Source of the DNA: a virus
IMG/VR virus record: IMGVR_UViG_3300045988_130630
Length of the DNA: 42,988 bases
Strand: one strand, 5' to 3'
This document shows positions 23,383 through 42,988 of the stretch, piece by piece; position 1 is the stretch's first letter, and every line of letters begins with the position of its first letter. Under the pieces are notes generated by a model. The model did no database searches. It saw nothing but the letters and a program-made list of their open reading frames with translations, and had not been told where the DNA came from. The translations under genes were made by a program, and so were the position numbers.

Positions 23383-23415
23383 AACTCGGCAGGATTTTGT
23401 ATGTCCTGCCGAGTT
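23383..23415. terminator. Terminator (AACTCGGCAGGA/TCCTGCCGAGTT followed by a T-run)
   Basis: Read directly. Confidence 0.55.
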
Positions 23416-23418
23416 TTT

Positions 23419-23613: not shown

Positions 23614-23716
23614 TTTTTTTATCCCCTTTCCTTTTATGCTTTTATTATACCATAGATTCAGGATTTGTCAATAGTTTTTTGAAAAAAGTTTGAAAAAAAT
23701 AAGGGCGTTTCCGCCC

Positions 23717-23971: not shown

Positions 23972-24074
23972 GGTTTTTATCCCCTTTCTTATTGTATCTA
24001 CATTATAACATCTGCTTTTGGATTTGTCAAGAGTTTTTTATAAAAAAAATAAGGGCTTTTTTCAGCCCTTATTC

Positions 24075-24236
24075 TTAGCACTTGACCCACGTGTTGACTA
24101 ATTTCCGCTCAATGGTCGCGGGCTTCGTCAGAGTGTTCGCATACGCCTGTGCTTCTTTCTTAGTCTTAAAGTAAGTCGGCAAGTAGTAGCCAAGGCGAGC
24201 GCTGTAATTATCTTCGGTGTAAACTCTGTATTTCAT
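24075..24236 (-). CDS. hypothetical protein (about 53 aa, start MKYRVYTEDNY)
   Basis: AAAGGAAAGGGG ribosome-binding site. Confidence 0.4.
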   Translation of the reverse strand: MKYRVYTEDNYSARLGYYLPTYFKTKKEAQAYANTLTKPATIERKLVNTWVKC

Positions 24237-24328
24237 TCTTTGTTTTCCCCTTTCCTTTACTATAATTATAATACCACACACCGCGAAGAATGTCAAGTGT
24301 TTTTTTCAAAAAAAAGAGAAGTTTTTCA

Positions 24329-24448
24329 ACTTCTCTTTCTGCGACGAATTGCTTTCTTTACGCGGTGCTCCACGTATTCGATGAGCGCGCCCGCGCCGAT
24401 AACACCAACATAGATAGCGAGAAGAACAAGACCATCGTGAGTAGACAT
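24329..24448 (-). CDS. 39-aa membrane peptide MSTHDGLVLLAIYVGVIGAGALIEYVEHRVKKAIRRRKRS
   Basis: GAGGTAAATCAAATG ribosome-binding site and start; a hydrophobic helix with a basic tail. Not in the ORF track because it is shorter than 60 aa. Confidence 0.4.
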
Positions 24449-24633
24449 TTGATTTACCTCTTTCTTTCTTTTGATGATACTATTATAGCATTTCGGGATA
24501 GAAATGTCAAGTGAATTTTGGCAAAAAATGGAAAAAATTTTGCTTTAACGCTTTACTGTGGTAAAGTTCGGGCTGGGACGCCCTACACGCGCCCAACGGC
24601 GCAAGAGAAAGAGCGGGAAGCCCGCTCCCGCCC

Positions 24634-24843
24634 TTAATACATTTCGCTACTGGGTTCAACTGTAAAATACTCAACGTTCTGCAAGTCGAGCTTGCCATAG
24701 AACTTATCATTATACATTGTAGCACCTGTCGCAAGTAAGTCGTTCATCTTACCTGCGATTTCCATGGCGCGCTGTTCCTCGAACGCCTGCTGGAAGAGAT
24801 AGCCCTGACCGCCCTTAGTGTAATAAACAATGCCATAAATCAT
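24634..24843 (-). CDS. hypothetical protein (69 aa)
   Basis: Supplied ORF track. Confidence 0.5.
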   Translation of the reverse strand: MIYGIVYYTKGGQGYLFQQAFEEQRAMEIAGKMNDLLATGATMYNDKFYGKLDLQNVEYFTVEPSSEMY

Positions 24844-24973
24844 TTTTCATTCCCCTTTCCTTTTGTGATTATAGAATACCACATTCTAACTGATTTGTCA
24901 AGACCTTTTTGAGAAAAATCTTCGTTAATTTTTTAACAATCTGCGCCGTAGGAAAGGAAGCATTACTGCTCCC

Positions 24974-25264
24974 TTATTCTGTGTAAAGACTTATCAATTC
25001 ATTTATCTTTTCAATGGCTTCATCAATGTCATCGAGGTAATTGTCTGCTAACATACTTGCATGGCTGGCTTCCTCGTAGGCTTCATACGCGTCGTTGAGT
25101 TCCTGCGTGCCAAACTTACCCAAGCTCTCAAAGGCGTTGACAATGTTCCATGTCTTAGCCATTTCCCCTCGCTTAACCTGGCAGTCATTGAACGCTGGCT
25201 TGCTCTCGTTCATTAAACGTTCCTTTTCAGCTTTGAGGGTGTTGTAAAAATCCTGATTAGTCAT
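24974..25264 (-). CDS. hypothetical protein (96 aa)
   Basis: Supplied ORF track. Confidence 0.5.
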   Translation of the reverse strand: MTNQDFYNTLKAEKERLMNESKPAFNDCQVKRGEMAKTWNIVNAFESLGKFGTQELNDAYEAYEEASHASMLADNYLDDIDEAIEKINELISLYTE

Positions 25265-25394
25265 TTGACTATTCCCCTTTCTTTATTGTATCTACATTGT
25301 AGCACATCATCGCGCATTTGTCAAGAGTTTTTTTACTCTTCTCTGCTTGTTAATTTTTTAACAATCTTCGCCGATCCGCAAGAAAGAGAGAGAC

Positions 25395-25757
25395 TTAGTA
25401 AGCCTCTCTCCATACCTTAATGATTGTATCATCTTCCACAGTATCAGTGTCATTGTCGTTAATCCACAAGAGCAAGAAGTCGTTGTCATCAATGTTAAGT
25501 GCTTCCACGTCCCACAGATTGTCTTGCTCGTCAATGAGCGTCAGGGTATCGCCCTCGCGTGCGTAGACCTCTGCGCCGACGAAACGAATGCTTCCGCGTT
25601 CCGTGCCTGCACCGCACCAATTCTCAATGACCGAGAGGTCGTAGGACTGGGGCGCCTCTTCACAGGCTTCCGCCGTTGTGTGGTCGTGGAATCCGAAGAA
25701 AGACACAGAGAGAATGATAGCAATGGCCATGGTGATGATTTTGGAAACGTTTTTCAT
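25395..25757 (-). CDS. secreted acidic protein with an N-terminal signal peptide (120 aa)
   Basis: Hydrophobic N-terminus KIITMAIAIILSVSFFGF; AAAGAGG ribosome-binding site; promoter at about 25780-25815. Confidence 0.5.
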   Translation of the reverse strand: MKNVSKIITMAIAIILSVSFFGFHDHTTAEACEEAPQSYDLSVIENWCGAGTERGSIRFVGAEVYAREGDTLTLIDEQDNLWDVEALNIDDNDFLLLWINDNDTDTVEDDTIIKVWREAY

Positions 25758-26132
25758 TTTGATTTACCTCTTTCTTTTTGATGATACAAGTATAGCACAT
25801 GACTACTGGATTGTCAATAGTCATTTTGCACAAATGTGATGGCGTAGTTTCGGGTATTTTGACGATTGTGCATTATGACGAAGTTTTGGCGAAAAATTTG
25901 TGCAAACTGCTGATTTTTATAAAACTCGGCTCGCCACTACCGCCAGCGAGCCGAGCAACGTTTACCGGGGTGTTTGTGCGGGATGGCATCTTGCGTTCCG
26001 CAAAAGAGCGAGAGTAAGGCTGGTATACTCTCAGAGAATAAACGAGTTAGAACCTTATGGATGGGGGTGTATTTCGGGAAAAAATTTTTTTTGATTTGTG
26101 TTTTTTCTTTTGCGTGGTCAAAACGCAATCTA

Positions 26133-26243
26133 AATCAATTTTCAATTTCAGATTACGAAGAATAATTTAAATTTACTATAATCAATTTTCAATTTCAGAT
26201 TACGATTTAAAACAACAAATCAATTTTCGATTTCAAATCACGA
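26133..26243. repeat. Three direct repeats of 26 bp AATCAATTTTC(A/G)ATTTCA(G/A)AT(T/C)ACGA, starting at 26133, 26180 and 26218
   Basis: Read directly. Confidence 0.6.
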
Positions 26244-26334
26244 CTTCTTCTTTCTACCTCTTTTAGGTTTTTCACCCCACATAAGAGTGTATAATCCAGA
26301 AGTAGCAGAATACGTAGCTTTTTGCTGATACTTT

Positions 26335-27100
26335 TTAGCAACTGCCTTCAATGGGCTTAGTGGTTTCCGCATTTAATTTTTCCTCCATATATTCGATTAA
26401 TTTATCTTTATATTTACAACTATCAATATATCTATTAATAATATCTGTATCATATTTTTCCATTAGATGCTCTAATACATATTTGTATTTATTCAATTGA
26501 TATTCCCTTTGCTCTTCTTTGGTGCTTAATTGAGCCTTTTCCGCGTCTGATAAAGGTTTATAAGTAATTGTTCTTGACCCATTATCTTTTTGCTCAATAC
26601 GTATTGTTTTAAATAATTTCCAATCTCTTACGAAAGGATCTTTATCTCTGGTAGCATTAAAATATTCTTGTTCCAATCTAAATACTACTGCATCTATCCC
26701 TCTTACTTCAAAAGGCTGGTTCCACCCCATCTTCGATATCCTCCCATTCAAATGTTCCATCATCTAATTCATATACAAATGCTTGTTTATAAAATGATGA
26801 AACAATTCCATCATTTGTAATTCCTTTTGGACTATTTTTTGCATCATGAAAACAATTATAAACAATTAATCCTTGCGTTTCATATCGCGAAAAATCTACT
26901 GCTCTTCCCTCAAAATCATAATTATAAAATATATTTAACAATAGCATACACTCATATTGCGCGATTGGCCATTTATTCAATTCTTTTTGCTAATTTGCCA
27001 TTTTTTGGTATAATACCCAAAAAGCTTTTCTATATAACCATAAAAAAAGGAGTGATGCTACTAACGCACAACTCAATAATATAATAAAAATAGTTTCCAT
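26335..27100 (-). CDS. AT-rich gene pair or fusion. Frame A (26708-27100, N-terminal transmembrane segment, one TAG read-through) and frame B (26335-26763) overlap at a UUU_UGA site, suggesting a possible +1 frameshift fusion of about 255 aa
   Basis: AAAAGGAG ribosome-binding site before the ATG at 27100. Frame A ends ..GCC TTT TGA, and a +1 slip UUU to UUU continues in frame B (GAA GTA AGA GGG..). Frame B has no ribosome-binding site of its own. Confidence 0.4.
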
Positions 27101-27239
27101 AAATACTCCTTTTCTTTTTCTTATAATAATAATAAAATAAAAATAAAGAAATGTCAAGTCGTAGAGTGTGATTGGGCAAAAGTTATTTGTTTTGTTAAAA
27201 AAATTTTTAAATATAAAAAGAAAAAATTTTAAATGAAAC

Positions 27240-27268
27240 TTGACAAAAAAAATTTTTTCGAGTATAAT
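27240..27268 (+). promoter_or_regulatory. sigma70-type promoter (TTGACA, 17-bp spacer, TATAAT) at the head of the plus-strand late/structural operon
   Basis: TTGACA at 27240-27245 and TATAAT at 27263-27268, 24 nt before the GGAGG ribosome-binding site of gene 27293. Confidence 0.55.
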
Positions 27269-27292
27269 ATAAATATAGACTGGAGGTAAAAA

Positions 27293-28348
27293 ATGATAAA
27301 ACTTGATTATTCTTTACAAACTCCAGAAGAAAGAAATCAATTAGTCGAACAAATTTTGGCTGATAATCCAGATCCGCCTGAAAAGTATTTAGAAATTTTA
27401 GCAGACTATTTGGTTCTTTGTATGGAGAAACAAGAAAAAAAGGAGAAAAAATTATTAACTGATAATCGTATGGCTACAGTTAATAAACGTGAGACTTCTT
27501 TTGAAGGTCTTGTTTCCCAACTCGAAAATGGCGAAGATGGAATTTATAATTTAATTACAGATAATAGAAATACAATATTTCAACCACATATTACAATTAC
27601 AAAAAAAGATTTAGAAGAGATACCAAGTTTAAATTAGTTAAGAGAAGCCATTAATGTTTGGGAGGCTAAATTAAAAGTAACAGAAGGCAAAGACGCTTTT
27701 GTTATTAAAAAGGCTCTTATTGAAATGCGTAAAGATTAGTATGTTATGAAAAATGCTTATCGTCGTCCAATAGTGCCTACAAAATTAACCAGATCAAAGT
27801 CTTATATTCCATTAGATGATAAAACATTTATTTTTGATGATGATGGTTTTCCCATTCCTGATGGAATTAGTTTATTAAGACCTGAAATATGTTCTGCGGT
27901 TTTATGTAATTATTCCCGATTAAAGCAAGATAGTTGGGGTGAATATGATAAAGACTTATGGTATTTAATGGAGGATTTTGATAAGCTTTGTGATAAAGCT
28001 TTAGCTAATTATCCTCTTTATGATAGAATCGTTGAATATAAAATTGATGGTTTACAAAATATTGACATTCAAGAGAAAATACAAATGGAATTTGGTATTA
28101 AACATAGCCTTGAATATATTTCAAGTTTATGGCGTAATAAAATTCCAAAATTAATTGCTTCGACTGCGGAAGATGAATATTTAGATAATTATTATTTAAA
28201 TGTTGAAAAAGGTAAATATAAAAAATGTAGTCGTTGTGGTAAAATAAAATTAGCTCATAATAAATATTTTAGTAAAAATAAAACAAGTAAAGATGGCTTT
28301 TATAGTATTTGTAAAAGTTGTCGAAATTCTAAGGCCAAAAAATCTTAA
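27293..28348 (+). CDS. TAG-recoded protein (351 aa, 2 TAGs) with a C-terminal CxxC..CxxC motif
   Basis: Track ORFs 27293-27637 and 27746-28348 are in the same frame and are joined by two TAG codons with no other stop. Confidence 0.55.
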
Positions 28349-28397
28349 TATTGTCCTTTTGTTTATAATAAATAATTGAAAGGAGAATATTTTATTT

Positions 28398-29585
28398 ATG
28401 GCTGAAACATATTATTGCGAAAAATGTAATCGCACAATGAATGGCACGGAATTTTATTCATCTAATAATTTAGAAAAATATCCTAATGATGGTAAATTCC
28501 CTATGTGCAAAAAATGTATGACAATGCACGTCGATAACTGGAATCCAGATACTTATTTATGGATTTTACAAGAGGCGGATGTTCCTTATGTTCCAGATGA
28601 ATGGAATAAATTAATGGAAAAATATGGACGCGATCCACAGTCTATGACCGGTATGACGATTCTTGGACGTTATTTGTCAAAAATGAAACTCAAATAGTTT
28701 AAAGATTATCGTTGGAAAGATACAGAATTTTTACAATAGATGGCAAATAATAAATTAGAGCAAACTATGAAACGTCAAGGGTATGATGCTCAATAGATTG
28801 CAACCGCTATTGAAAAAAGTTCTATTGCTATTCCAGAAGGAGAATTAAAAGAGCCGGTTTATGCTCCACCGCCTGATGCCCCTACGGAAGATTATTTCGC
28901 ACAATAGAGTGGTGAAGTGGAACAAGAATTAGATTTAACTGATGAAGACCGCACTTATTTAAGACTTAAATGGGGCAAAACTTATAAACCTGAAGAATGG
29001 GTTAAGCTTGAATAGTTGTATGAAGAAATGATGGCTTCTTATGATATTCAAGGTGCCGGACATAAAGATACGCTAAAACTAATATGTAAGACATCTTTAA
29101 AGGCAAATCAATTGATCGATATTGGTGATATTGAAGGTTTCCAAAAGATGAGCAAAGTATATGATAGCTTAATGAAGTCTGGTAAATTTACTGCTGCCCA
29201 AAATAAAGCAGAGTCAGGCGAATTTGTTGATTCAATTGGCGAATTAATTGAATTATGTGAAAAAGAAGGATATATTGAAAGATATTATGTTGAATAGCCA
29301 CATGATAAAGTGGACTTGACTATTCAAGATATGCAACGTTATACTCGCACTCTTATTGAAGATGAAACTAATATCAGCACAATGGTAGAAAAAGCTTTAC
29401 GCGAAAATGCTAAAGAAGATGAAGAGAAAGCAAAGAACGCGGAAAGCGATATTGTTGATGATGCTGATTTAAGTATTGAAGAACTTGAAAAAACTATTAA
29501 AGATAGTGATTACGCAGATTTTGAGGAATTTAAAGAATAGGAATCTGCGCAAGATAATGAGTTCTTATAGGGTTTAGATAAATAA
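28398..29585 (+). CDS. TAG-recoded protein (395 aa, 8 TAGs), N-terminal Zn ribbon; possibly the terminase small subunit by position
   Basis: Track ORFs 28398, 29016 and 29310 are in the same frame, joined only by TAGs, and terminate at the TAA at 29583. Its stop overlaps the terminase start (TAATG). Confidence 0.5.
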
Positions 29586-31324
29586 TGGCATTACAAGATT
29601 TACTGTAGTTAAGTGATAGCCGTAGAAAAATAGGTCTATCACCGGAGCGAGTAGAAGCGGTAATGCCCACTATCCGTAAATACGTTGCCTTTTGGAGAGA
29701 ATATCCTGATTTATTTGTAGATTTTATGGTGCGAGGAAGACGCACTGAAATAAAAGATGGAGAATTTAATTTTTATTTTTATTAGAGAGTATTTCTCCGT
29801 TCTGTTATGCGTTATTAGTATGTTTATGCGGTTTTTCCTCGTGCTTATTCTAAATCATTTTTGTCTGTTATGGCATTGATGATTAGATGTATTTTATACC
29901 CTGGCGCACATTTGTTCGTTACTTCTGGAGGTAAAGAGCAAGGTGCTAGTATTCTTCATGATAAAGTTCAAGAAATATGTGAACTTATTCCCAGCTTTAA
30001 TCGAGAAATTGATTGGAGTCGAGGAAAAACTCTTGAAGGAAAAGATAAAGTTAGATATGTATTTAAAAATGGTTCAGTTTTGGATAACCTTGCAGCGCGT
30101 GAAAGCACTCGTGGTCAACGTCGTCATGGTGGATTAATGGAAGAATGTGTTGGTATTGATGATGCCATTCTTCGTGAAGTTATTATTCCTGTTATGGCAA
30201 TTTCCCGTAGAGCTAAAGATGGCACTACTAATGAACAAGAGCCATTAAATAAATCACAAATTTATATTACTACTGCTGGTTATAAGGGCACATTCCCTTA
30301 TGATAGACTTATTGGTTTCTTAGTTCGTATGGTAACTTAGCCCGATCGTTGTATGGTATTAGGCGGAACATGGCGAACTCCTGTTGCAGTAGGATTACAA
30401 AGTAAAACATTTATTACTGACCAAAAGAATGAAGGAACTTATAATGAGGCTTCATTCGAACGTGAATACGAATCTAAGTGGTCAGGAACTGTTGAGGATG
30501 CTTTCTTTAATGGAGAGCATTTTGATAGAAATAGAAAACTATTATAGCCTGAATACGAAGCTTCTGGACGTGCGGGCGCGCAAGCTTATTATGTGCTTTC
30601 TGTAGATGTAGGTCGTAAAGGATGCGATTCAGTAGTTTGTGTATTTAAAGTAACACCACAAGCCCAAGGTCCAGCTATTAAATCTTTAGTAAATATGTAT
30701 ACTATGTCAGATGATCATTTTGAAGATCAGGCTATTAAATTAAAGAAATTATTTTATAAATATAAAGCTAAAACTTTGGTTATAGATGGTAATGGTTTAG
30801 GTATTGGACTTTTGGATTATATGGTAAAATCTCAAAATGATGAAGATGGTGAATTTTTACCTGATTTTGGTGTTGAGAATGATGATGATGGATATTATAA
30901 AAAATATCGCACACCAAATACTCAATTTGATGCTATGTATGTTATTAAAGCAAATGCTCCAATAAATACTGAATGTCATGCTAATGCTCAGACTCAATTA
31001 CAAGCGGGTAAGGTAAAATTCTTAATAGATGAGAGAACAGCTAAAGAAAAATTATTAGCTACTCAAAAAGGTTCAAAAATGACTCCTGAACAAAGGGCAG
31101 ATTATTTAAAACCATTTACTTTAACCTCCATATTAAAAGAAGAAATGATGAATTTACGCGAAGAAAATGAAGGTATTAATATTATTTTAAAATAGGCAAA
31201 TCGCGGAATTCGTAAAGATAAATTTTCGGCTTTCGAATATGGATTATATTATTTAAAACTTGAAGAAGATAAAAAGAAAAAACGTAAAAAGTTTAATGCG
31301 GCTGATTGGTGCTTTTTAAATTAA
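29585..31324 (+). CDS. terL: Terminase large subunit (579 aa, 5 in-frame TAGs)
   Basis: Track ORFs 29861, 30353 and 30593 are in frame. The ATPase region contains HLFVTSGGKEQGAS. The nuclease region LSVDVGRKGCDSVVCVFKV...LVIDGNGLGIGL has the RNase-H-like D..G..D and DxxG motifs typical of TerL. Confidence 0.65.
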
Positions 31325-31336
31325 GGAGGGTGGAAA

Positions 31337-31693
31337 GTGCGTGCTTCAAGAGGAGAAATTAAAATTGAAGAAATCTTAGAAGAAGCAGGACTACCTTTTA
31401 AAATGGAATACATCTTTCCAGATTTAAAAAGCCCAAGCGGGCGTCCGCTTCGTTTTGATTTTGTTATATTTGATGATGATGGAAAAATTGATTTCATTAT
31501 TGAGTATTAGGGAAAATAGCATTATGAAGCCAGTTCTAAATTTGGCGGAAAGCGCGGTTTATACCAGTAGCAATATAATGATAATCAAAAAAGACGTTTT
31601 TGCGCTTTACATGATTTTAGATTAATAGAGATTCCATATACCGACGAAAACCTTATTTCTTATGATTATATAATGAAATTAGCAGGTTATTAA
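31337..31693 (+). CDS. TAG-recoded small Vsr/DUF559-like (PD-(D/E)XK) endonuclease, putative free-standing homing endonuclease between terminase and portal (118 aa, 3 TAGs)
   Basis: AAGGAGGG ribosome-binding site then GTG. Contains ..RPLRFDFVIFDDDGKIDFIIEY(TAG)GK(TAG)HY.., i.e. the IEYDGxQH motif with the conserved Gln encoded by TAG. Confidence 0.55.
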
Positions 31694-31706
31694 AGGAGGT
31701 GGAACT

Positions 31707-33356
31707 TTGGATACGCAAGATCGTAATGAATAGATTCATGCTAAAGGTTTTGATATTTATAATGGTCGTTATGAATATAATTACAATGATACTATGGATT
31801 ATGCTAATAGAAAAATAAAAGTTGGCACAAAAACTTTAGATGATGCTATTTTAAAACTTGGTGATTATAGTAAGATTAGATACCCAGGTCAAAATCGTAT
31901 TATCACGAAACCTGATGTGCTTCGCGCGCTCGCAGAAAGAGATCTAAATGCTTTGCGATACATTTCTAATTTTTATTATGATATAAGTGGTGTATATCAA
32001 CGAGTTTGTAATTATGTTGCTTTTTTATATCGTTATGATTGGTATATTGCAGCCGAAACTTATGATGACAATGTAAAAGAAGAAAAAGTTTTAAAAGATT
32101 TTTATAAAATGTTGAATTATTTTGATAATAGCTATATTAAAAAGGTTTGCGGAGATATTGCTTTACAAGTTGTTAAAAATGGATGCTATTATGGATATAT
32201 AGTTCCTTCTGAGAAAAATCTAATTTTACAAGAATTACCAGTTAGATATTGTAGAACACGTTATAGTGTAAATAATACCCCAGTTGTTGAATTTGATATG
32301 CGATTTTTTGATACTTTTAGAGATATGAATTATCGTTTAAAAGTATTAAAATTATTCCCAGAAGAATTTGCTAAAGGTTATGTTCTATATAAACAAGGAA
32401 AGCTTGCTTTAGAAGAGGCAGTTGGATGCTAGCATACTGGTAGTTGGTATGTTCTTGAACCAGAAAATTGTGTTAAATTTAATATTAATAATAGTGATGT
32501 TCCTATTTTTGTAAATTCGATTCCTACTATTATGGATTTAGATGCAGCGCAAGATCTTGATCGCAAGAAACAAATGTAGAAGTTACTTAAAATTTTAGTC
32601 CAAAAGCTCCCAATGGATAAAAATGGTGATTTGATATTTGATGTTGATGAAGCCAGAGATATTCATAATAATGCCGTTTAGATGTTATAGAGGGCTATTG
32701 GAGTAGATGTTTTAACTACATTTACTGATGTAGATTCTATTGATATGTCTGATAAAAATACTACTACAACGACAGATGATTTAGCTAAAGTTGAACGTAG
32801 TGTTTATAATTCATTAGGTATTTCATAGAATTTATTTAATACTGATGGCAATATGGCTTTAGAAAAATCAGTATTAAATGATGAATCTACAATAAGAAGT
32901 TTAATTTTATAGTTTAATATATTCTTTAATAGAATTATTGAAAAAAAGAGTAGTAATAAGAAATATAATTTTAGATTTTATTTATTAGAAACTACTTAGA
33001 ATAATTATCAAACACTTTCTAAAATGTATAAAGAACAAGCACAAATGGGACAATCAAAACTATTGTCTTAGATTGCTCTTGGACATTCGTAGAGTTTTAT
33101 TCTTAATGCAGCTCATTTTGAAAATGAGATTTTACATTTAAGTGAAATTATGATTCCTCCTCTTATGAGTTCTACTATGGGTAGTGAAGATATTTTGGGT
33201 TTAAAAGGTTCATCATCTAATAATAAAACTCAAAATAATTCAGGAAGTTCAGGTTCTGGAACTGCTAAAGCTTCTAATGGCGAGGCAGGACGTCCAGAAA
33301 AACCTGATGACTAGAAAAGTGAAAAAACTATTCAAAATAAAGAAGCAATGAAATAA
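31707..33356 (+). CDS. Portal protein (about 549 aa, about 9 in-frame TAGs)
   Basis: AAAGGAGG ribosome-binding site then TTG at 31707, in frame with track ORF 31794-32432 and open to the TAA at 33354. Its size and position immediately after terminase support the call. Confidence 0.5.
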
Positions 33357-33365
33357 GGAGGATTT

Positions 33366-34946
33366 ATGAAACATACAAGTATTAAATTAAATACACCTTG
33401 TGAGTTTATAAATATAACTCCTGTAAATCCTTTAATTTCTAAATGCCAAATTAAGGTTTGTTATGTAGATGATAAACCTAATCGTAACAAAAGCGTAATT
33501 ACTAAAGATGTAGCGACTGAGATGGCTAATAGCCTTCCTGGTAGTCCTATTGTTGGCTTTTTTAATGAGAATGCTGAAGATTTTGAAGAACATAATAGGA
33601 TAATTGAATTATCTAACGGCGAATTTAGAATGAGAGATAATACTCGCCCTTATGGTTTTGTTGATCTTGGAGCTAAAGTTTGGTTTTAGAAATTTTTGGA
33701 TGATGGTGTTGCCGAACGTGAGTATTTAATGACTGAAGGTTATTTGTGGACTGGTTAGTATCCTGAATGTAAACGTGTGGTTGATAAAGGGAATAATCAT
33801 TCTATGGAGCTTGATGAAAAAACATTAAATGCTACGTGGGCAAAAGATAGCAATGGAAAACCTTAGTTTTTTATTATAAATAAGGCAATTATTTCTAAAC
33901 TTTGTATTTTGGGAGAAGAAAATGAACCTTGTTTCGAAGGCTCCCAAATCAATGTGAATTTTTCATTCGATGATGGTTTTAAGAACACTTTGTTCTCCAT
34001 GATGAATGAACTTAAAGAATTTATGAAAGAAGGAGGAGCCAAAGTGTTTACACAATACGCTGTTAATATTGGCGACAATTTGTGGAATTCTCTTTATTCT
34101 TATATTGAGAATAAGTATCCTGTCGAACCAAAGAATTATTGTTCTATTTATCGCATTGAAGGTGTCTGCGAAGATGGTGAACAAAAGTTTGCTGTTTTGA
34201 AGAATAAGCAGGATGAAAAATACTATCGTATGGATTTTTCTCTTGACGCAGAGAATTTCGTTCCTTCTGATACTTTGATTGAAGTAACTGATTATGCTCC
34301 TGCGGCTGAGCCTCAGTTTGCTCTTAATGCTGTAGAAGAATTTGAAAATGAGTATGCTTCAAAAAAGAAAGCAGAAGAGGACAAAAATAATAAATCAAAT
34401 AATCCTGACGGTGAAAATAAATCAGAGGGCAATGATAATAAAAAGAACCCTGATAATGGAGAGCCCTCTAATAAGTCTGATAAAGGCAACAACGGTGAGA
34501 ATGATGACGATGATAAAAAGAAAAAGAAAAATTATTCTCTTGAAGATGTTGTTGAATATACTGAACTTAAAGCTCAGTATGATGAATTATAGACTAAATT
34601 TGCAGCTCTTGAAACTGAAAATAATAGCTTGAAAGAGCAAATTGCTCCACTTGCTGAATTTAAAAATGCTGCTGAGAAGAAAGATAAAGAAGATATGATT
34701 GCTAAATTCTATATGCTTTCTGATGAAGATAAGGCTGATGTTGTTGAAAATATTGATAAATATTCTCTTGATGATATTGAAGCTAAATTATCTGTTATTT
34801 GTGTTCGCAACAAGGTGAGTTTCGACCTTGACGAAAATAATAAGCCCAATGGTGCTACTACTTTTAATTTGAACAATAATGGTTCAGAAGATGATGATAT
34901 GCCCGCTTGGGTGAAGGCGGCTTTTGCTACCGCCAACAAAAATTAA
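33366..34946 (+). CDS. TAG-recoded head-morphogenesis protein (526 aa, 4 TAGs) with an acidic, low-complexity, coiled-coil C-terminal half; putative scaffold or prohead protein
   Basis: Track ORFs 33366, 33909 and 34629 are in frame. It contains a KKKAEEDKNNKSNNPDGENKSEGNDNKKN stretch and ETENNSLKEQI heptads. Confidence 0.45.
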
Positions 34947-34963
34947 TAAGGAGGACATACTAA

Positions 34964-35890
34964 ATGTTTAAAGACTTTTTGAATAGTCATTTAGGTATCA
35001 AGGGTATCCCTAAGTCTCAGGCAAAGTATGTTGAGTTTGGTTACGGTCAGGTCGAGCCTAATCACCTTTCCGCGCAAAGAAATGCTCAAATCTATGCTCA
35101 ACTTCCTGCCAATAAAGAGATTGAGATTCTTGAAAACGGTCAGTTTGTAAAGTATGACTATGCTGCTAATGGTAACGGTATCGGCGAAGTCAACTTTACT
35201 GGCGAAGGTGAATGGATGCTCGTTTATAATGAGATTAAGCTTTATCGTGATCATCCAGATGGAACCAAGCAGTGGGATTGCGAATTTGCTATGATTAAAG
35301 ATGACTATCAGGCTCGTGTTTATAGCCCTTATGATTGGGAGCATACCGAGGTTGAATATGGTGGTCGTTTCTGGAATGGTGTTGATGAAAAGGGTCAAAC
35401 TTATAAGTTAATCGAGCAGACTGTTTCCGCTGATCAGGGCTTAAAGACTGTTACTATTGCTGGTCGTGTTTATGACGTTGTTGATAATAAGTTTACTTAT
35501 GATGGTAATGAATATACTCTTGATAGTAATCATCAGGTTGCTAAAGTTCCTGTAAAGTATTACTATGATAAGGTTCTTACTGATGTCCCTGACATGTATG
35601 AAATGAATTGGACTAATAATCCATATCATAAGTTAGGCATCTATCATGAGAAGTTCATGGAATCTGGCACTTCTATGGTTCCTCGTGTATTTAAGACCAT
35701 GATTGGTGATCTTTATACTACTAATATGATTAATGAAGATACTCTTGTTGTTGGAGATAAGCTTTCTCCTTCTGCTGATACAAAGGGTATTCTTAGCAAA
35801 ACTGGCGACGATTCAATGACCTGGCAGGTTGTTAAAGTTTATACTATGCCTGATGGTCAAAAGGGCGTTAAGGTAATGCGTATTAAGTAA
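34964..35890 (+). CDS. structural protein (308 aa, no TAG), capsid-associated
   Basis: Supplied ORF track; AAGGAGG ribosome-binding site; no TAG codon; lies between the scaffold-like and capsid-like genes. Confidence 0.5.
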   Translation: MFKDFLNSHLGIKGIPKSQAKYVEFGYGQVEPNHLSAQRNAQIYAQLPANKEIEILENGQFVKYDYAANGNGIGEVNFTGEGEWMLVYNEIKLYRDHPDGTKQWDCEFAMIKDDYQARVYSPYDWEHTEVEYGGRFWNGVDEKGQTYKLIEQTVSADQGLKTVTIAGRVYDVVDNKFTYDGNEYTLDSNHQVAKVPVKYYYDKVLTDVPDMYEMNWTNNPYHKLGIYHEKFMESGTSMVPRVFKTMIGDLYTTNMINEDTLVVGDKLSPSADTKGILSKTGDDSMTWQVVKVYTMPDGQKGVKVMRIK

Positions 35891-35907
35891 GAAAGGAGAA
35901 AAGGATA

Positions 35908-37017
35908 ATGTTAGATAAAAATAATTTAATTGCTCTTATGAAGCAAGTTGCTAAGGCTGATCCTTCTGCTCCTGTTGCTTATAGTTATGAGGGAAAAAAT
36001 CTTAGTTATGAAGCCTTGAATGAAACTCTTCGTAATGAAATGAATGAGTTGGCTGGCACTTACGCTCTTTATCGTGAAAATAAGAATCTTATTTTCTCTA
36101 TGATTGAGCAGACTCTTGATGAGGTTCTTCCTAAGAAAGTTATTCAGCAATATGATCAGTTTGCTGAGGTTAAGACTTTCGCTCAGGGTGATAAACCTAT
36201 CTTCCGTCGTCCTCTTAATAATCGTGCTCGTGCTAAGCAGTTTGTAACTCGCGTTGGTCTTGCTGGTATTTATGAAGTCTTCAAGCTCGGACCTAAAGAG
36301 AATGAAGCCTTCGAGGTACGTACTAGCGCTATCGGCGGAGCTGCTCAGATCGGCTTCGAAGAGTTCCTCGATGGTCGTGTTGATTTCGGTGAAGTAACCA
36401 AGATCATCATGGATGGTATGGATGAACTTATTTATAAAGAAGTCGCTGCCGCTCTTAGATCTTCTATCAATCAGCTTCCTCCTGCTAACCGCGTTGCGGC
36501 TGCCGGATTTGATGAAGCTGCTATGGATCGTTTGATCACCATTGCTTCTGCTTATGGTACTCCTACTATTTATTGTACTTATGAGTTTGCTGTTAAGATG
36601 ATTCCTCATGAGGCTTGGAGATATACTGAAGCTATGAAGAATGAGCTTTGGAATAATGGTCGTCTTGCTACCTATAAGGGCACTAAGGTTATTATTCTTG
36701 AGCAGGGCTTTGAAGATGAAACCAATACTCGTAAGGTTATTGATCCTGGTTATGCTTGGGTTATTCCTACGGGCGCTGATGGTAAGCCTGTAAAGATTGC
36801 TTTCGAAGGTGGCACTATTGTTGACGAGTTCAACAATTATGATCGTTCTCGTGAGATTTAGGTTTACAAGAAGGTTGGCGTAGTTTGCATGCTCGCTAAT
36901 AACATCTGTGCTTATGTTGATACTTCACTTCTCGGTCAGATGTATACTTGGAATTATGATGGAGTTACTGGCAAGGTTATCACTTATGATGGTCGCCTTA
37001 GTGGTGCTACTGTTTAA
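35908..37017 (+). CDS. putative major capsid protein (369 aa, one TAG near the C-terminus)
   Basis: Track ORF 35908-36861 extended through one TAG to the TAA at 37015. AAAGGAGAAAAGG ribosome-binding site. Immediately followed by a strong terminator. Position after the scaffold-like gene. Confidence 0.45.
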
Positions 37018-37034
37018 TTTAATATAAATTATTC

Positions 37035-37080
37035 CATGGGGAGAAGGGATTAAACTCCCTCTCCCCATATTTTTGTTTTA
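37035..37080 (+). terminator. Rho-independent terminator (GGGGAGAAGGG..CCCTCTCCCC followed by ATATTTTTGTTTT) after the capsid gene
   Basis: Read directly. Confidence 0.6.
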
Positions 37081-37103
37081 TGAGTAAAAGGAGAAATTGA
37101 ATA

Positions 37104-37697
37104 ATGATTAATAATGAAGATATTTATAATGTAAAAAATAGAAGCACTAGTGTAGTTGTTTATACTATTCCTGATACTAATTTGCGTCGTGAATTTGCGC
37201 CCGGTGAAACTAAGCGTATTCCATTTGGTGAGCTAGAAAAATTAACTTATCAAGCAGGCGGCCGCGAATTAATTGCTAATTTTTTACAAATTTTAGAGCC
37301 AGAAGTAACTCATACTCTTAATGTTCATACTGAACCTGAATACAATATGTCAGAGCAACAAGTTGCTGATTTAATTCTTAATGGCTCATTAGATGCTTTC
37401 TTAGATGCTCTTGATTTTGCTCCTATTGGAATTATTGACTTAATCAAGAATTTATCTGTTAGCCTTCCTATTACTGATATTAATAAGCGTAGAGCTTTGA
37501 AGGAAAAAACTGGGTTTGATGTTGATAAAGCTATTGCTAATGATATCGCTAGTAAAGAAGAAGATACTATCGTAGAAAAAGAACCTGCAACTAAGCGCCG
37601 TGTAGTAAGAGAAGAACCTACTACTCAAGGTCGTCGTACAAGCGGTTCTGGATATAAAGTAATTAATAAAACCGAGGAAACTTCCTCCAAGAAATAA
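37104..37697 (+). CDS. hypothetical structural protein (197 aa, no TAG)
   Basis: Supplied ORF track; AAAGGAGAAA ribosome-binding site. Confidence 0.5.
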   Translation: MINNEDIYNVKNRSTSVVVYTIPDTNLRREFAPGETKRIPFGELEKLTYQAGGRELIANFLQILEPEVTHTLNVHTEPEYNMSEQQVADLILNGSLDAFLDALDFAPIGIIDLIKNLSVSLPITDINKRRALKEKTGFDVDKAIANDIASKEEDTIVEKEPATKRRVVREEPTTQGRRTSGSGYKVINKTEETSSKK

Positions 37698-37716
37698 TTT
37701 ATAGGAGGGCGATTAA

Positions 37717-38289
37717 GTGGGAACATTATTCTCAACTGTTTATAATCGCTTTCTAAACAAGGTTACTGATGATATGTATCTGGAATTGACCCCTGAAGAT
37801 ACTCTAAGAGATTTATAGAATCTTATAATAGATGCTATTCCTGGATTTGAATTTCCGCGAAAAAATCTTTTAGATTATAATTTAGATGTTGCTACTATTA
37901 ATGAATCTGAGGCTATGCCAAATGATTTTATTGTAGGAACAGTATGGGGAGAACTTCCAGAACCGGGTGAAGAACCTCAAGTTTTAGTTGATAGATCCAG
38001 CTTTAATTGTGATCTAACTGAAGAAGAAATTAATATTTTAGCTATTTTAATGATGTGCGGTTGGACGCAAAGACAAGTCACTTCAATTGAGAACACTCGA
38101 ATGAAATACAGTGGCTCTGATTTTAAATTTACTTCTTAGGCAAATCATTTATCAAAGTTATTAAACTTATTAGGTGAATGCCAAAGACAATCTCACCATA
38201 TGTAGCGTTTATATAAACGTAGACGTTTAAATAATAAAGGTGAATATGAATCTAATTGGGATGTGTTTAAAAGTCGATATGATTACTAA
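37717..38289 (+). CDS. TAG-recoded hypothetical protein (190 aa, 3 TAGs), possibly a head-tail connector
   Basis: AGGAGGG ribosome-binding site then GTG; in frame with track ORF 37915-38139; open to the TAA at 38287. Confidence 0.4.
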
Positions 38290-38587
38290 ATATAATTTTG
38301 ATATTCCAATAGAGAGTATAAAAGTAAATTGTTTGCGCTTAACCAATCAATTATGGAAATTAATTCCAATGCGCGAAAATAATGAAGATTGGCATAAATA
38401 GCTAGAAACTGTTATAAATGAAATTGTGGGGTTTAGTGTGATTTTTAGCGCTGAACCCCTTTATTTATAGTTATTAAACAAACTTGAGGGATTGTAGAAT
38501 CAAGATACTGATTTTAATTTTTATCGTAAGACTGTATTTGAAACGATTAGTCTTTTATAGGAGATAAATTATGGCATCAGGGTTTGA
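38279..38587 (+). CDS. TAG-recoded hypothetical protein (about 102 aa, 4 TAGs); start uncertain
   Basis: Frame open from the ATG at 38279 to the TGA at 38585 with TAG read through. Confidence 0.3.
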
Positions 38588-39635
38588 TTATAGTAGTAAG
38601 CAACCTTTTAGATTACAACAAGGTCGCTTAGGAATTTATGATAAGCCACCCTTTGAAGGTAGCCCTGTTGAAGGCGTTAATTATACAGCGGTTCGGCTCG
38701 GTTAGATGGGCGGAAACCGCCAACAAGAGCGTATGATTTTATCTAAGCGCAGAAGTTTAGATAGAGCAGTATGGAATTCATATCAAGCCGCGGAAATTAT
38801 TAAATAGGATGCGGAATATAAAAAACCTATTAGGTGTTTGATTAATCCTAATAAATTAAAATAGGATTATGATGACAAGATTTTGTCTGTTGGAAATGAA
38901 TATTAGTTTAAACCGGGAGATATTTTTGAATGGTGTGGAACTAATACCTATTGGATTTGTTATCTTTAGGATTTGACTGAATTAGCTTATTTTAGAGGAG
39001 ATATTAGGAAATGCTCTTATAAGATAAATTGGGTAGATGAGGGAGAGAAGAAATCTACTTATGCAGCAATTCGCGGTCCTGTAGAAACGAAAATTGATTA
39101 TATTCAGAAACATGAAATTAGTATAGATAATCCCAATTATTCATTAAATATTTTAATGCCAAAAAATAAAGATACGTTAAGATATTTTAAACGTTATACT
39201 AAATTTTATTTAGATAGTTAGGATGAGGGAGATAATTTAATTTGTTGGCGTGTTGAAGCTGTAGATTCTATAAGTATGCCTGGCATTTTAGAAATCAATG
39301 CGACTGAATATTATACTAATGAGTAGGAAGACAATTTAGACGATAAGACTGTTGGTTCTTTAATTACAGAACCAATTGATCCAAATCCTACGACAACTGA
39401 TATTATAGGGGAAACATTTATTTTTCCAAAGAGAACTTATACTTATTATTTTGATGGTGAAGTTGTTTTAGAATGGAAAATAAAAAATAATAAAAAGTTG
39501 CCGGTTTCTTTAAAAATTATTAAAGAAGCAAAAAAGCCAACAGTTGAAATAAGTTGGACTTCTGGATATAGCGGATAGTTCGATTTATGTTATGGAGACT
39601 ATAAGAAAACGATTGTAGTTCAATCATTGTTTTAA
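38571..39635 (+). CDS. TAG-recoded hypothetical structural protein (354 aa, 9 TAGs)
   Basis: ATG at 38571 after a GGAG ribosome-binding site; in frame with track ORF 38973-39221; open to the TAA at 39633. Confidence 0.45.
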
Positions 39636-39650
39636 GGAGTAAAAGGTGTT

Positions 39651-40232
39651 ATGAAAATTAATGGTGTAAATTTACCTAAATCAAGTTTTTTTTCTGTTGA
39701 AAAAGATTTAGAAATTATTGTAAAACATCTCTGTAAAAATGAGAGATTAAAGCGCTTATTGTATTATACAACAAAAGATGCTATTGATAAGCCAGATTTA
39801 AATGATGAACAAATGATTCAATTATTTAATAAAAATATTAAGTTAATTCCTAAGCTTTATGTTGATGGAAGTGTATTAAATTATTTAATTATTAATTTTG
39901 ATAATTTTACACAAAGCGGAAATCCTGAGTTTAGAGATAATATTGTTGAATTCGATATTATTTGTCATTTTGATCAATGGCATTTAAAAGATTATCAATT
40001 GCGCCCTTATCGTATCGCCGCAGAAATTGACAGCATGATAGATAAAACACATTTAACTGGTATTGGCAAATTAGAATTTCTTGGTGCGAATCAAATTATT
40101 TTAACTGATGAATATGCTGGTTTATGCCTTATGTATCAGGCAGTTCATGGCGAAGAAGATAAAAAATTTATGCCGAATCCTAATGACGAGGAAAGATTTA
40201 TAGAAGATTTTAAAAAAAGAACTGAAAAATAA
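39651..40232 (+). CDS. hypothetical protein (193 aa, no TAG)
   Basis: Supplied ORF track; AAGGAG ribosome-binding site. Confidence 0.5.
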   Translation: MKINGVNLPKSSFFSVEKDLEIIVKHLCKNERLKRLLYYTTKDAIDKPDLNDEQMIQLFNKNIKLIPKLYVDGSVLNYLIINFDNFTQSGNPEFRDNIVEFDIICHFDQWHLKDYQLRPYRIAAEIDSMIDKTHLTGIGKLEFLGANQIILTDEYAGLCLMYQAVHGEEDKKFMPNPNDEERFIEDFKKRTEK

Positions 40233-40957
40233 TGGATATTAGACTTGGGTTAATGACAGGTATTGATTTGCCAATACCTGAATTAGAAGTCACTATTCAT
40301 TAGCCATCTATAAAAGAGATTTCTTTTATAGGTGAAAAAGATCTTTTCTTGGGGATTTAGTGCTTATGTATTGATAAAAACATAATAGAGAATTCGGGCG
40401 AAAGTCTTTTAAGAGAAACAAATAATTTTTAGATATTTATGACAATGATGAAAGAAAAAGAGATGGCCGATAAAAAACAAGCATCTATATAGGTTCTTAC
40501 ATTATTGTTTCCAAAGCAAAATGTTTTATTTACCCCGAGGTCAATTGTTTTACAAGGTGACCCACAAATAATGATTGACGAAAGCAATTTTAATATATTA
40601 TAGGAATATATTAAAGAAATATTTTGTTTTAAATCTAATGCTTCGCAAGAAATGGGATTCAATCCTGGAAATGCGGCCGCGAAAAAGATAGCCGATAAAT
40701 TAATGCGAGGTAGACAACGTGTCGCTGAATTAAATGGCACGGCTAATGCTAGTATATTTAGTTAGTATCTTTCAATGCTTACTATAGGTCTTGATTCAAT
40801 GTCTTTACAGGATTTAATGGATTTAACAATGTTCCAACTCTATGACCTTGTTGAAAGATATCAACTTTATATTAATTGGGATATTGATATCCGGTCTAGA
40901 TTAGCGGGCGCGAAGCCTGATAATAAGCCGGATAACTGGATGAAAAATATCCATTAA
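40232..40957 (+). CDS. TAG-recoded hypothetical protein (241 aa, 7 TAGs)
   Basis: ATG overlaps the upstream stop (TAATG); in frame with track ORF 40775-40957. Confidence 0.45.
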
Positions 40958-40981
40958 ATTTTTTAAGGAGGAAAAAAACCT

Positions 40982-41965
40982 ATGAAATTTGGTGTACGCG
41001 AAATTTGCGATGTCGTTTTAAAGGCAAAGGCTAATCAAAAGATTGGTAATAAGCAATTTTATAAGAATGAGCCAGTTATTTATTTCGACACTTTAAAGAC
41101 TTCCAGTATGGAAGGCGCTGCTACCACCGTATACGCACAAGGTGGACGTGGTAATACTAACTTAGTCGCATGGGAAGGCGAGCGTACTGTTACCTTCACA
41201 ATGGAAGATGCTCTTATTTCTCCTGAAGGTTTCATGATTCTTTCCGGTGCTGGTCTTGTTGAGGCTTCTGCTAAAAATAAGATTAAGCAACATATTACTC
41301 AAACTGTTGATAAGACTAAAGACATTGTCCCTGCTAATACTGAAAAAGACATTAAAACTGATGGATTGATTATTCCTGTCTCTTATGCCCCTTATCTTGA
41401 TAATGAACATAAAGATGACGATTATGTTTATGTTTTCTTCATGAAGGATGGCGAAATTATTTCTGAGCCTTATTTAGCACATGAAGGAGTTACCACTGGA
41501 GACGCTGGTTTTAGTGTTACCGTAAAGGGATTTGCTCGTTCTACTGGAGCGGCTTATACCACTAACGATTTAGAGAATGATTATGCTAAATGCGATTCTG
41601 TAATGGTTGATTATTACACTGAGCGTGAATCTGGCGCTAAGCAGATTGAAATTACTGCTGATAAGTTCGGTGGTAACTACTATCTTGAAGCTTCTACCTT
41701 ATTCCGTAATCAAGATGGTGTAGATATGCCTGCTGAATTTATTATTCCTAACTGCAAGATTCAATCCAACTTTAACTTTACAATGGCTTCTTCTGGTGAT
41801 CCTTCTACTTTCACCTTTACTATGGATGCATTCCCTGATTATACTCGTTTCGATCATAGTAAGAAAGTTTTGGCTGCTATTCAGATTATTGAAGAAGACG
41901 AAACTGTTGACAACGATATTCGTAGAAAGACCGCTGCTGATAGCACCATTGCTGTTGGAGGCTAA
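40982..41965 (+). CDS. putative major tail (tube) protein (327 aa, no TAG)
   Basis: Strong AAGGAGGAAAAAAACC ribosome-binding site; no TAG; followed by a small gene and a strong terminator. Position downstream of the head genes. Confidence 0.4.
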   Translation: MKFGVREICDVVLKAKANQKIGNKQFYKNEPVIYFDTLKTSSMEGAATTVYAQGGRGNTNLVAWEGERTVTFTMEDALISPEGFMILSGAGLVEASAKNKIKQHITQTVDKTKDIVPANTEKDIKTDGLIIPVSYAPYLDNEHKDDDYVYVFFMKDGEIISEPYLAHEGVTTGDAGFSVTVKGFARSTGAAYTTNDLENDYAKCDSVMVDYYTERESGAKQIEITADKFGGNYYLEASTLFRNQDGVDMPAEFIIPNCKIQSNFNFTMASSGDPSTFTFTMDAFPDYTRFDHSKKVLAAIQIIEEDETVDNDIRRKTAADSTIAVGG

Positions 41966-41970
41966 TTAAT

Positions 41971-42153
41971 ATGGTTGTAAAAGGTCCAGTAAAATATACT
42001 CCACCAAAACAGCCTAAAAAAGAATCTACTAAAAAGCAGCCAAAAGTAGAAAAGGCTGTAAAGAAAGAGCTTATCGAGCCTATTGAGGAAGTAGTTCTTC
42101 AAGAGGAAGATGAGGTAAGTAAGATTTTATCTGAATTAGATAAAAAAGATTAA
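41971..42153 (+). CDS. small basic/acidic protein (60 aa, no TAG)
   Basis: Supplied ORF track. Confidence 0.4.
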   Translation: MVVKGPVKYTPPKQPKKESTKKQPKVEKAVKKELIEPIEEVVLQEEDEVSKILSELDKKD

Positions 42154-42154
42154 T

Positions 42155-42195
42155 TAATGGGAGAGAATAGAAATATTCTCTCCCATTTTTTTGTT
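42155..42195 (+). terminator. Rho-independent terminator (GGGAGAGAATA..TATTCTCTCCC followed by ATTTTTTTGTT)
   Basis: Read directly. Confidence 0.6.
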
Positions 42196-42217
42196 ATGTG
42201 AAAAAGGAGGATTAAAT

Positions 42218-42988
42218 TTGGTAATTAAAAATAATTATAGTAATAATAGTCAAGAAAGTTAGAAAATTGCTGAGGATTTTATTTATTGGACTGAAGATAT
42301 GATAAAAGAGCAGTTATAGTAGGAACATTTTAAAGAATTATATGAAAAAATAAGAAAATCATCAGAAATATTAATTAAACATTTTACTATTTTTGATAAT
42401 ATTTAGAAAAAGCATAATAGTAAAATAAATAAATCAATGACTATGACTTTAAATTTATTAGAATAGAAAAAAATATTAATCTATTAGGAATTTTTTAATT
42501 TATAGAATTTAATTAATGAGTTTTTAAGTCAAGAAATAAAAATTACTGCTGTTTATGTTGATCCAATTACAGGCCAAAGAGAGATTAGATTAATGGATAA
42601 TGATATAAAAAATATTCAAGCAGTTGAAAAAACATCTGTATAGGGTTATAATTATGCTAAATTAGAATATGATATGAATTAGCATTATGAAAATTTAAAA
42701 AATGCTTTGCCAGATGATGATAATAAAGGACTATAGAATACAGCAATGCAAGTGGAATTAAGATATAATAAATATAAAAAGAGAATATTATGGTATAAAA
42801 ATTAGTGGAAAGGATATACAATGTCTACTCGTGGTCCTATTAATGAAGCATTTGTATCTTTTTATATAAATAATATTAAATTTAATTCAGATCTTGAAAC
42901 AAATATTGATTATTTTATGTTAGATCCTACTATGGGTGCAATTAATGCTGATAATATGAATGGATTTTTAATTGGAGACGTGTCTGGG
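42218..42988 (+). CDS. TAG-recoded protein, partial (at least 257 codons with 13 in-frame TAGs; continues past the window end)
   Basis: AAAGGAGG ribosome-binding site then TTG at 42218. There is no TAA or TGA in 771 nt of 25%-GC sequence in this frame, which is open only if TAG is read through. Confidence 0.45.

Follow-up and report, generated by a model that had tools for sequence, protein, structure and literature searches.

TAG-recoded gut phages were described by Borges et al. 2021 (10.1101/2021.08.26.457843), whose model is a code switch that delays the late proteins. The same study reported that recoding is convergently biased towards structural and lysis genes, described a recoded intron endonuclease inside an early gene, and predicted standard-code Firmicutes or Bacteroidetes hosts. 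Proteomic proof of recoding was obtained for crAss-like phages (Peters et al. 2022, PMC9523058). The phAss-1 group was described by Babkin et al. 2023 (PMC10607447); phAss-1 has no dedicated aminoacyl-tRNA synthetase, and tRNAscan-SE assigns the Gln isotype to its suppressor tRNA. This phage (OQ749652) possesses three tRNA(CUA) genes, and NCBI files it under 'Caudoviricetes code 15 clade'. Of the code-15 phages in GenBank it is the closest to the DNA studied here, the IMG/VR virus record IMGVR_UViG_3300045988_130630. The whole stretch of 42,988 nt with a GC content of 36.7% is referred to below as the window. It very probably represents the left 43 kb of a ~148-kb SPbeta/phAss-1-related siphovirus of the human gut, in which TAG is a suppressor-decoded glutamine codon (genetic code 15) and the early genes are TAG-free.

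The window shows 100% identity with positions 559-43546 of the ENA contig ERZ28663575 scaffold_39 (148,233 bp), and the terminal 43 kb of ERZ27261577 k99_39008 is identical to it. Identity is 95-98% for a further 13 IMG/VR contigs (97-197 kb) and for several contigs from ENA and Logan, and more than 20 independent contigs have the same gene architecture. For the relatives and for the identical ENA contig, the public gene calls already have the code-15 lengths (terminase 579 aa, portal 520 aa, tape measure 2767 aa). The promoters and ribosome-binding sites are of a Gram-positive style, which suggests a Bacillota host. The overall layout of the window is as follows.

1286-4653 and 7700-27100, minus strand: small genes
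~5229-7309, plus strand: island of genes
27293 to past the window end, plus strand: recoded operon

Reading frames of the late operon

If only TAA and TGA are taken as stops, 16 stop-to-stop open reading frames (ORFs) tile the region 27290-42988 of the plus strand without a gap. With the chosen starts, these late genes contain 65 in-frame TAG codons in 4991 codons (68 if counted stop-to-stop). Not a single TAA or TGA lies in frame, against 980 such trinucleotides in the other two frames. The analysis thus confirms that the frames of the late operon are open only by reading TAG through. An earlier interpretation of this DNA from its letters (the sequence-only reading) had proposed this, and was also right that TAA and TGA still terminate the genes (15 and one, respectively). 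Its count of one to 13 TAG codons per gene has to be corrected to 0-11, and its claim that every late gene contains TAG does not hold for the genes 34964-35890, 37104-37697, 39651-40232 and 40982-41965. The comparison of coding density that it had recommended came out in favor of table 15: greedy ORF coverage of the late region is 74% under code 11 and 93% under code 15, and the longest ORF in the window grows from 332 aa to 580 aa. TAG terminates none of the ~67 curated genes of the window. TAG-ended ORFs were rejected as genes, being located in repeated promoter/terminator modules and giving junk translations.

The protein products support the same frames. PHROG profile matches run across the TAG codons in the large terminase (E = 6e-20 to 5e-62), the portal (E = 3e-82, residues 48-517) and virion proteins. 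The stored Pfam matches in the operon are the SPbeta families YonD_N, YonB, YomW, YomV and YomU. In the close relatives, variable sites located 3′ of the first TAG are distributed over codon positions 1:2:3 as 86:54:457, and those located 5′ of the first TAG or in TAG-free genes as 40:23:285. The third-position bias is therefore kept after the TAG codons; the sequence behind them is under protein-level selection, which removes the pseudogene and assembly-artefact readings. Nor are the genes fragmented in related phages; more than 20 contigs share the architecture, and the standard-code orthologues are collinear.

The features of the operon are listed below, with GC3 standing for the GC content at third codon positions.

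27240-27268, plus strand: perfect sigma-A/sigma-70 consensus promoter (TTGACA-17-TATAAT), followed by a GGAGG ribosome-binding site and the ATG at 27293; heads the recoded operon
27293-28348, plus strand: first operon gene, 351 aa, 2 sense TAG; PHROG 5767, 'sigma factor' label unconfirmed
28398-29585, plus strand: 395-aa protein, 8 sense TAG, phrog_3314; orthologue of Enterococcus phage H1 gene H1_77
29585-31324, plus strand: large terminase, 579 aa, 6 sense TAG (PHROG, orthologues)
31337-31693, plus strand: small homing-endonuclease-like nuclease, 118 aa, 3 sense TAG, motif IIEY-TAG-GK-TAG-HY
31794-33356, plus strand: portal protein, 520 aa, 10 sense TAG; start may be 31707 (PHROG, stored hits)
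33366-34946, plus strand: YonD_N-family head-assembly or scaffold-like protein, 526 aa, 4 sense TAG
34964-35890, plus strand: head-region protein, 308 aa, no TAG, higher GC3 (0.32)
35908-37017, plus strand: YonB-family protein (Pfam), 369 aa, 1 sense TAG, GC 0.41
37104-40957, plus strand: six head-tail joining and tail genes (PHROG/Pfam), namely 37104-37697 (0 TAG), 37774-38289 (3), 38246-38587 (4), 38571-39635 (8), 39651-40232 YomW (0) and 40232-40957 YomV (6)
40982-41965, plus strand: YomU-family tail tube protein, 327 aa, 0 TAG
42156-42187, plus strand: strong 14-bp hairpin with T-run, terminator-like, 3′ of the tail tube gene and a 60-aa ORF
42299-42988, plus strand: 5′ part of a gene for 314 aa; of its 14 sense TAG, 10 lie in the window

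The promoter 27240-27268 is the sole strong one seen in the 15 kb up to the terminator 42156-42187. Judging from its position, the YonB-family protein is probably the major head protein. The tape-measure gene (~2767 aa, L020:12982-20984 in a relative), located just right of the window, has at least 80 in-frame TAG codons in its first 2667 codons, compared with 109 CAA/CAG codons. Annotation with code 11 would break up the packaging, head and tail genes of an abundant lineage, so table 15 is needed.

The function of the first operon gene is not obvious from its annotation. The PHROG label 'sigma factor' is in conflict with one JGI (Joint Genome Institute) record naming an 'antirestriction protein', and Pfam, NCBIfam and PDB sequence searches gave no match. 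The AlphaFold2 model is mediocre (mean predicted local distance difference test, pLDDT, 62.8), and Foldseek against PDB returned no match with E < 0.25. The family is large, with 6838 full-length homologues at E <= 1e-5, the top 120 of which show 75-100% identity, and public metagenomes must therefore contain the phage lineage very commonly. At the C-terminus of the proteins, a CxxC...CxxC motif is invariant.

Glutamine as the residue encoded by TAG

The residue facing TAG in standard-code orthologues is most commonly Gln, at 20/101 sites (19.8%) against a background of 4.2% (binomial p = 7e-9), followed by E, K and R. The profile of these residues resembles that facing the canonical CAA/CAG codons (22% self-conserved). 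With substitution profiles estimated from the same orthologue alignments, the maximum-likelihood assignment of TAG is Gln, ahead of Lys by 21 nats, of Ser by 35 and of Leu, Tyr and Trp by >100.

The close relatives provide direct population-level evidence for the synonymy of TAG, CAG and CAA. Among the relatives with 95-98% identity, 16 late-gene sites are polymorphic for TAG; 15 of them swap with CAG and/or CAA only, and the remaining site swaps with CAT. The minus-strand TAG at 26990 is likewise replaced by CAG in one relative. None of the terminase TAG positions is common to phAss-1 or MT836163. The TAG positions are thus labile and swap with CAG/CAA, which implies that TAG acts as a freely exchanging synonymous Gln codon. 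The assignment of TAG to glutamine, proposed in the sequence-only reading as code 15-like, is strongly supported by the orthologue residues, the TAG/CAG/CAA swaps and the phage-borne tRNA(CUA) of a 96%-identical relative, which is described below.

TAG-free early genes and two codon dialects

The minus strand of the window is occupied by two blocks of small genes.

7700-26763, minus strand: ~36 small TAG-free, standard-code-compatible genes, mostly behind a near-consensus TTGACA-N17-(TG)TATAAT promoter
1286-4653, minus strand: second TAG-free block, 9 genes

These 45 curated genes comprise 4695 codons, 108 of which encode Gln, and contain no TAG. Their stops are TAA (29) and TGA (16), never TAG. 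The share of TAG among Gln codons is 0 in these minus-strand genes and 33% in late-type genes (Fisher p = 4e-16). Leucine codons served as a control for the first codon position: in the same early genes TTG makes up 46% of TTG plus CTG, from which ~31 TAG codons would be expected among the 68 xAG Gln codons, and none is found (p = 4e-19). Since first-position T is tolerated in TTG/CTG yet 0/68 is TAG, it is concluded that TAG is actively excluded from the early genes.

The genes read on the minus strand have protein-like translations and a positive protein-likeness score. PHROG matches were obtained for a few of them and include exonuclease-like, AbrB-type and polynucleotide-kinase or deoxyribonucleotidase-like proteins. 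When all ORFs of the early region were compared with five relatives by local tblastn, only the exonuclease-like gene 11470-12246 and the endonuclease matched. Because tblastn matched so little, the strand of the early genes was set from protein-likeness, translations, PHROG matches and promoter orientation. Long code-15 ORFs on the plus strand between 8500 and 26000 were dismissed as antisense shadows. The paralogous minus-strand genes 9636-10013 and 12389-12769 show 74% identity over 300 nt, and their proteins share the N-terminus M(S/A)TST..KKLTKRDRFEALLK.

The early status of the genes is supported by 35 host-type (sigma-A) promoters on the minus strand between 8137 and 27157, which match TTGACA-N17-TATAAT with at most one mismatch, where ~3 are expected by chance on both strands together; 33 of the 35 have the extended -10 TG. 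The promoters are part of repeated modules, in which they are accompanied by a bidirectional terminator, a GC-rich 5′ hairpin with covariation and a ribosome-binding site of the GGGG type. Inside such modules, perfect-consensus plus-strand promoters at 10726, 13274 and 15575 oppose the minus-strand early promoters, and a terminator hairpin follows ~110 nt further on. They may give rise to short transcripts, antisense or convergent, that cover the early promoters and 5′ untranslated regions.

The two classes of genes are written in different codon dialects, which were compared between 7000-26000 of the window and 1-1000, 5000-7000 and 27000-42988. The TAG-free early genes have a GC content of 0.40-0.54 and a GC3 of ~0.5, and CAG constitutes 63% of their Gln codons. 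The TAG-containing genes have a GC content of 0.21-0.34 and a GC3 of ~0.2; the Gln codons of late-type genes are CAA (55%), TAG (33%) and CAG (13%). Leucine codons show the same split, with TTA at 12% in early versus 57% in TAG-containing genes and CTC+CTG at 42% versus 4%. Among the late genes, GC3 is highest in 34964-35890, 35908-37017 and 40982-41965, which are poor in TAG and use CAG. The share of TAG in late-type genes tends to fall as GC3 rises, a trend that is not significant (rho = -0.32, p = 0.14). The presence of the split in phAss-1 but not in standard-code relatives suggests that it co-evolves with recoding.

Sense TAG codons outside the late operon

Sense TAG codons are also found in the following genes.

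261-1190, minus strand: homing endonuclease, 309 aa, 9 sense TAG, motif LIEFDGI-TAG-HY, GC 0.29
21563-22363, minus strand: GIY-YIG homing endonuclease, 266 aa, 2 sense TAG, motif K-Y-L-G-TAG-H
26708-27100, minus strand: membrane-anchored protein, 130 aa, a single sense TAG (26990); lies at the divergent promoter region as the first gene of the minus strand
5229-7309, plus strand: four low-GC orphan genes with 12 sense TAG in total, namely 5229-5879 (7 TAG), 6057-6365 (3), 6416-6730 (1) and 6836-7309 (1); public gene calls agree

Several details of the sequence-only reading are altered by this list. It had confined recoding to the late operon and three nuclease genes, and had described the minus-strand genes as free of TAG. 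The latter is true of the 45 curated genes and fails for 26708-27100, besides the two homing endonucleases that it had itself named as recoded; the former overlooks 26708-27100 and the island 5229-7309. The motifs IEFDGI-TAG-HY (261-1190) and IIEY-TAG-GK-TAG-HY (31337-31693) had been quoted exactly, and the GIY-YIG motif given as YIG-TAG-H is in fact YLG-TAG-H. In all three nucleases TAG had been placed at an invariant glutamine. This stands for the QH position; in the 31337-31693 motif, the second TAG faces Gln in the orthologue of Enterococcus phage H1 and the first TAG faces Asn.

The GIY-YIG gene together with its flanks (~1.1 kb, window 21361-22585) is absent in three close relatives (L006, L013 and L017), which indicates that it was recently mobile. 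Rfam at gathering thresholds returned nothing for the whole window, so no introns or riboswitches are annotated near the endonuclease genes. In the plus-strand island, seven copies of a ~44-nt iteron (core TAGGTAATTTTTCATAGTTGC) at 4940-5178 and 5860-5936 lie on either side of gene 5229-5879, the product of which gives weak, sub-threshold helix-turn-helix matches. The iterons and this gene could be a replication origin with its initiator, or an operator module.

Suppressor tRNA

ARAGORN found no tRNA genes in the window and hence no suppressor, as the sequence-only reading had stated for tRNA(CUA). The IMG/VR database was then scanned with a pattern consisting of the anticodon arm and T loop of the phAss-1 tRNA(CUA) genes. 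The scan matched contig 3300045988_126669, with a tRNA(CUA) at L081:7965-8054. The same contig is the source of a locus (L016) with 96.4% identity to window 24637-32683 (~8 kb). ARAGORN predicts ten tRNAs at L081, one of which is the 90-nt tRNA(CUA).

The L081 tRNA(CUA) is an orthologue of phAss-1 suppressor tRNA #1. The two hardly differ in the anticodon arm, the T arm or the 21-nt variable arm, and the differences in their acceptor and D stems are compensatory. This pattern argues for a conserved and functional tRNA. The suppressor tRNA (L081:7965-8054 and phAss-1 OQ749652 62445-62532) has a U1-U72 mismatch and G73, and its variable arm, which forms a small hairpin, is conserved between the two lineages; such traits are unusual in a tRNA apparently inserting Gln. 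Similarity of the suppressor tRNA to other phage tRNAs carried no isotype information. A perfect sigma-A promoter is located 2 kb 5′ of the L081 tRNA(CUA). Co-orientation of the array with the early genes was considered as a sign of early expression and dropped, as the array lies among TAG-containing genes. The TAG-containing ORFs in the array are L081:4181-4777, 5113-5973 and 9235-10728; judged by eye, they encode an HNH endonuclease akin to that of 261-1190, a cell-wall-hydrolase-like protein with a SPOR domain and a surface protein rich in repeats.

Proposed mechanism and alternative explanations

We propose that the host uses the standard code, so that the TAG-free early genes would be readable by the unmodified host right after infection. 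The tRNA(CUA) seen in the 96%-identical relative would decode TAG, so that the genes for packaging, head, tail, tape measure and homing endonucleases, along with some others, could be translated. As TAG is never used as a stop, the whole genome would be valid once suppression is on. Full-length products of the TAG-containing genes would appear only after the suppressor tRNA has built up, and the virion proteins and endonucleases would be delayed; we regard such a delay as slightly more likely than not. Several observations weigh against this proposal. The 'early' and 'late' status of the genes is deduced from promoters, gene content and strand. A perfect host-type promoter heads the recoded operon, so it may or may not be transcribed late. 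The presence of TAG is confounded with the low-GC3 dialect, and the two are inseparable within the window. The tRNA(CUA) was found in the contig of a close relative, outside the window, and the array there is interspersed with both TAG-free and TAG-containing ORFs, a context that gives no expression time. The 21-nt variable arm is atypical for tRNA-Gln, and charging with Gln is deduced solely from the codon-substitution evidence. It is unlikely, although arguable, that virion timing is set mainly at translation and not at transcription. The idea arises because the promoter of the structural operon is of the same class as the 35 early promoters, and because the low-GC3, TAG-rich dialect would depend on a phage tRNA array including the long-variable-arm suppressor. 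The GC split present in phAss-1 but not in three standard-code relatives also leaves room for it.

The distribution of TAG may also be non-regulatory, with TAG still encoding Gln: given a suppressor tRNA, AT-biased drift from CAG to TAG would occur where codon selection is weak, and early or highly expressed genes would keep host-optimal codons. This explanation is a serious although less probable one. It fits the confinement of TAG to the low-GC3 dialect, the highest GC3 being found in the TAG-poor late genes, and the lability of the TAG positions (16 polymorphic at 95-98% identity, none common with the phAss-1 or MT836163 terminase); the trend of TAG share with GC3 points the same way without reaching significance (rho = -0.32, p = 0.14). 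The leucine control, 46% T with 0/68 TAG in early genes, speaks for active exclusion instead, and the convergent bias of recoding towards structural and lysis genes (Borges et al. 2021) also counts against this explanation. Exclusion is required by the switch model but is equally expected from constraint, so that the two explanations differ mainly on whether the delay is adaptive. Decoding of TAG as another residue, namely Ser, Leu or Tyr in view of the type-II-like variable arm of the 90-nt tRNA(CUA), or pyrrolysine in view of the 'Pyl' label that ARAGORN gives to any CUA anticodon, is highly improbable given the lead of Gln over Lys (21 nats), Ser (35) and Leu, Tyr and Trp (>100), the 15/16 polymorphic sites swapping only with CAA/CAG, and the Gln isotype of the phAss-1 suppressor according to tRNAscan-SE (Babkin et al. 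2023, PMC10607447).

A code-15 host, which the phage merely matches and in which no switch would exist, agrees with the finding that TAG is never a stop in the window. Such a host would not explain 45 early genes lacking sense TAG despite 108 Gln codons, nor the tRNA(CUA) owned by the phage lineage, and standard-code Firmicutes/Bacteroidetes hosts are predicted for such phages (Borges et al. 2021); we consider it extremely improbable. The chance that pseudogenes, assembly errors or occasional leaky read-through, and no reassignment, account for the TAG codons is practically nil. Nothing specific favors this view beyond the fragmented look of the genes under code 11. TAG is the sole interruption, with no in-frame TAA or TGA; the architecture recurs in more than 20 independent contigs, and one gene has 6838 full-length homologues; third-position bias is kept after the TAG codons; and leakage through at least 80 TAG codons of the tape measure would yield essentially no product. 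The preferred explanation thus remains a phage in which TAG encodes glutamine and the early genes are TAG-free.

Comparison with known systems

The phage shares with the code-15 phages of Borges et al. 2021 (Garnet, Topaz, Sapphire, crAss-like and Lak) the sense TAG codons in structural/late genes, the standard-code-compatible early genes, TAA-dominated stops, low GC content and recoded homing endonucleases among the early genes; the phage suppressor tRNA of those phages has its counterpart in the 96%-identical relative. It differs from them in its SPbeta-like structural module (YonB, YomU, YomV, YomW, YonD), in a very sharp two-dialect split and in the consensus host promoter before the recoded operon, and no named clade could be assigned. 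The crAss-like and Lak comparison drawn in the sequence-only reading was not upheld. Membership in crAss-like phages (Crassvirales) or Lak was rejected, as the nearest terminases are those of Enterococcus, Geobacillus, Alicyclobacillus and Bacillus phages and phAss-1, and the Pfam families are those of SPbeta.

The similarity to phAss-1 and the proposed Phassvirus group is closer. Both are human gut phages of ~136-148 kb with siphovirus-like features; a tRNA array and the orthologous long-variable-arm tRNA(CUA) are present in phAss-1, where the array is large, and in the 96%-identical relative. TAG encodes Gln in the terminase, portal, tape measure and other genes of both, and the recoded module lies 10-15 GC points below the remainder (0.33-0.40 versus 0.42-0.56 in phAss-1). 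Standard-code Enterococcus phages are among the relatives of both. Unlike these shared traits, terminase identity is only 44.7% and no terminase TAG position is common; megablast of the late region against GenBank phages gave no nucleotide match, phAss-1 included. By these comparisons, the phage belongs to the same broad SPbeta/Enterococcus-phage/phAss-1 assemblage but to a lineage other than Phassvirus at the genus level or higher.

Three phages that use the standard code, namely Enterococcus phage H1, Geobacillus virus E3 and Alicyclobacillus phage KKP_3916, display gene-for-gene collinearity with the late operon, down to the small nuclease behind the terminase; Enterococcus phages VRE9_4 and EF1 are grouped with H1 as standard-code relatives. 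In phage H1 a block of small opposite-strand genes also adjoins the operon. In contrast to the window, H1, E3 and KKP_3916 have no sense TAG and a flat GC profile, and the GC3 of phage H1 is 0.17 for late genes versus 0.22 for the small genes on the opposite strand.

Recoding, the Gln assignment, suppressor tRNAs, the early/late asymmetry and the link with low GC content have all been published already, and no new principle is added here. The lineage is well suited to an experimental test of the code switch as a timer. Within one genome, the window offers an unusually clean contrast between ~45 TAG-free genes behind host promoters and a 15-kb operon in which TAG accounts for one third of the Gln codons.

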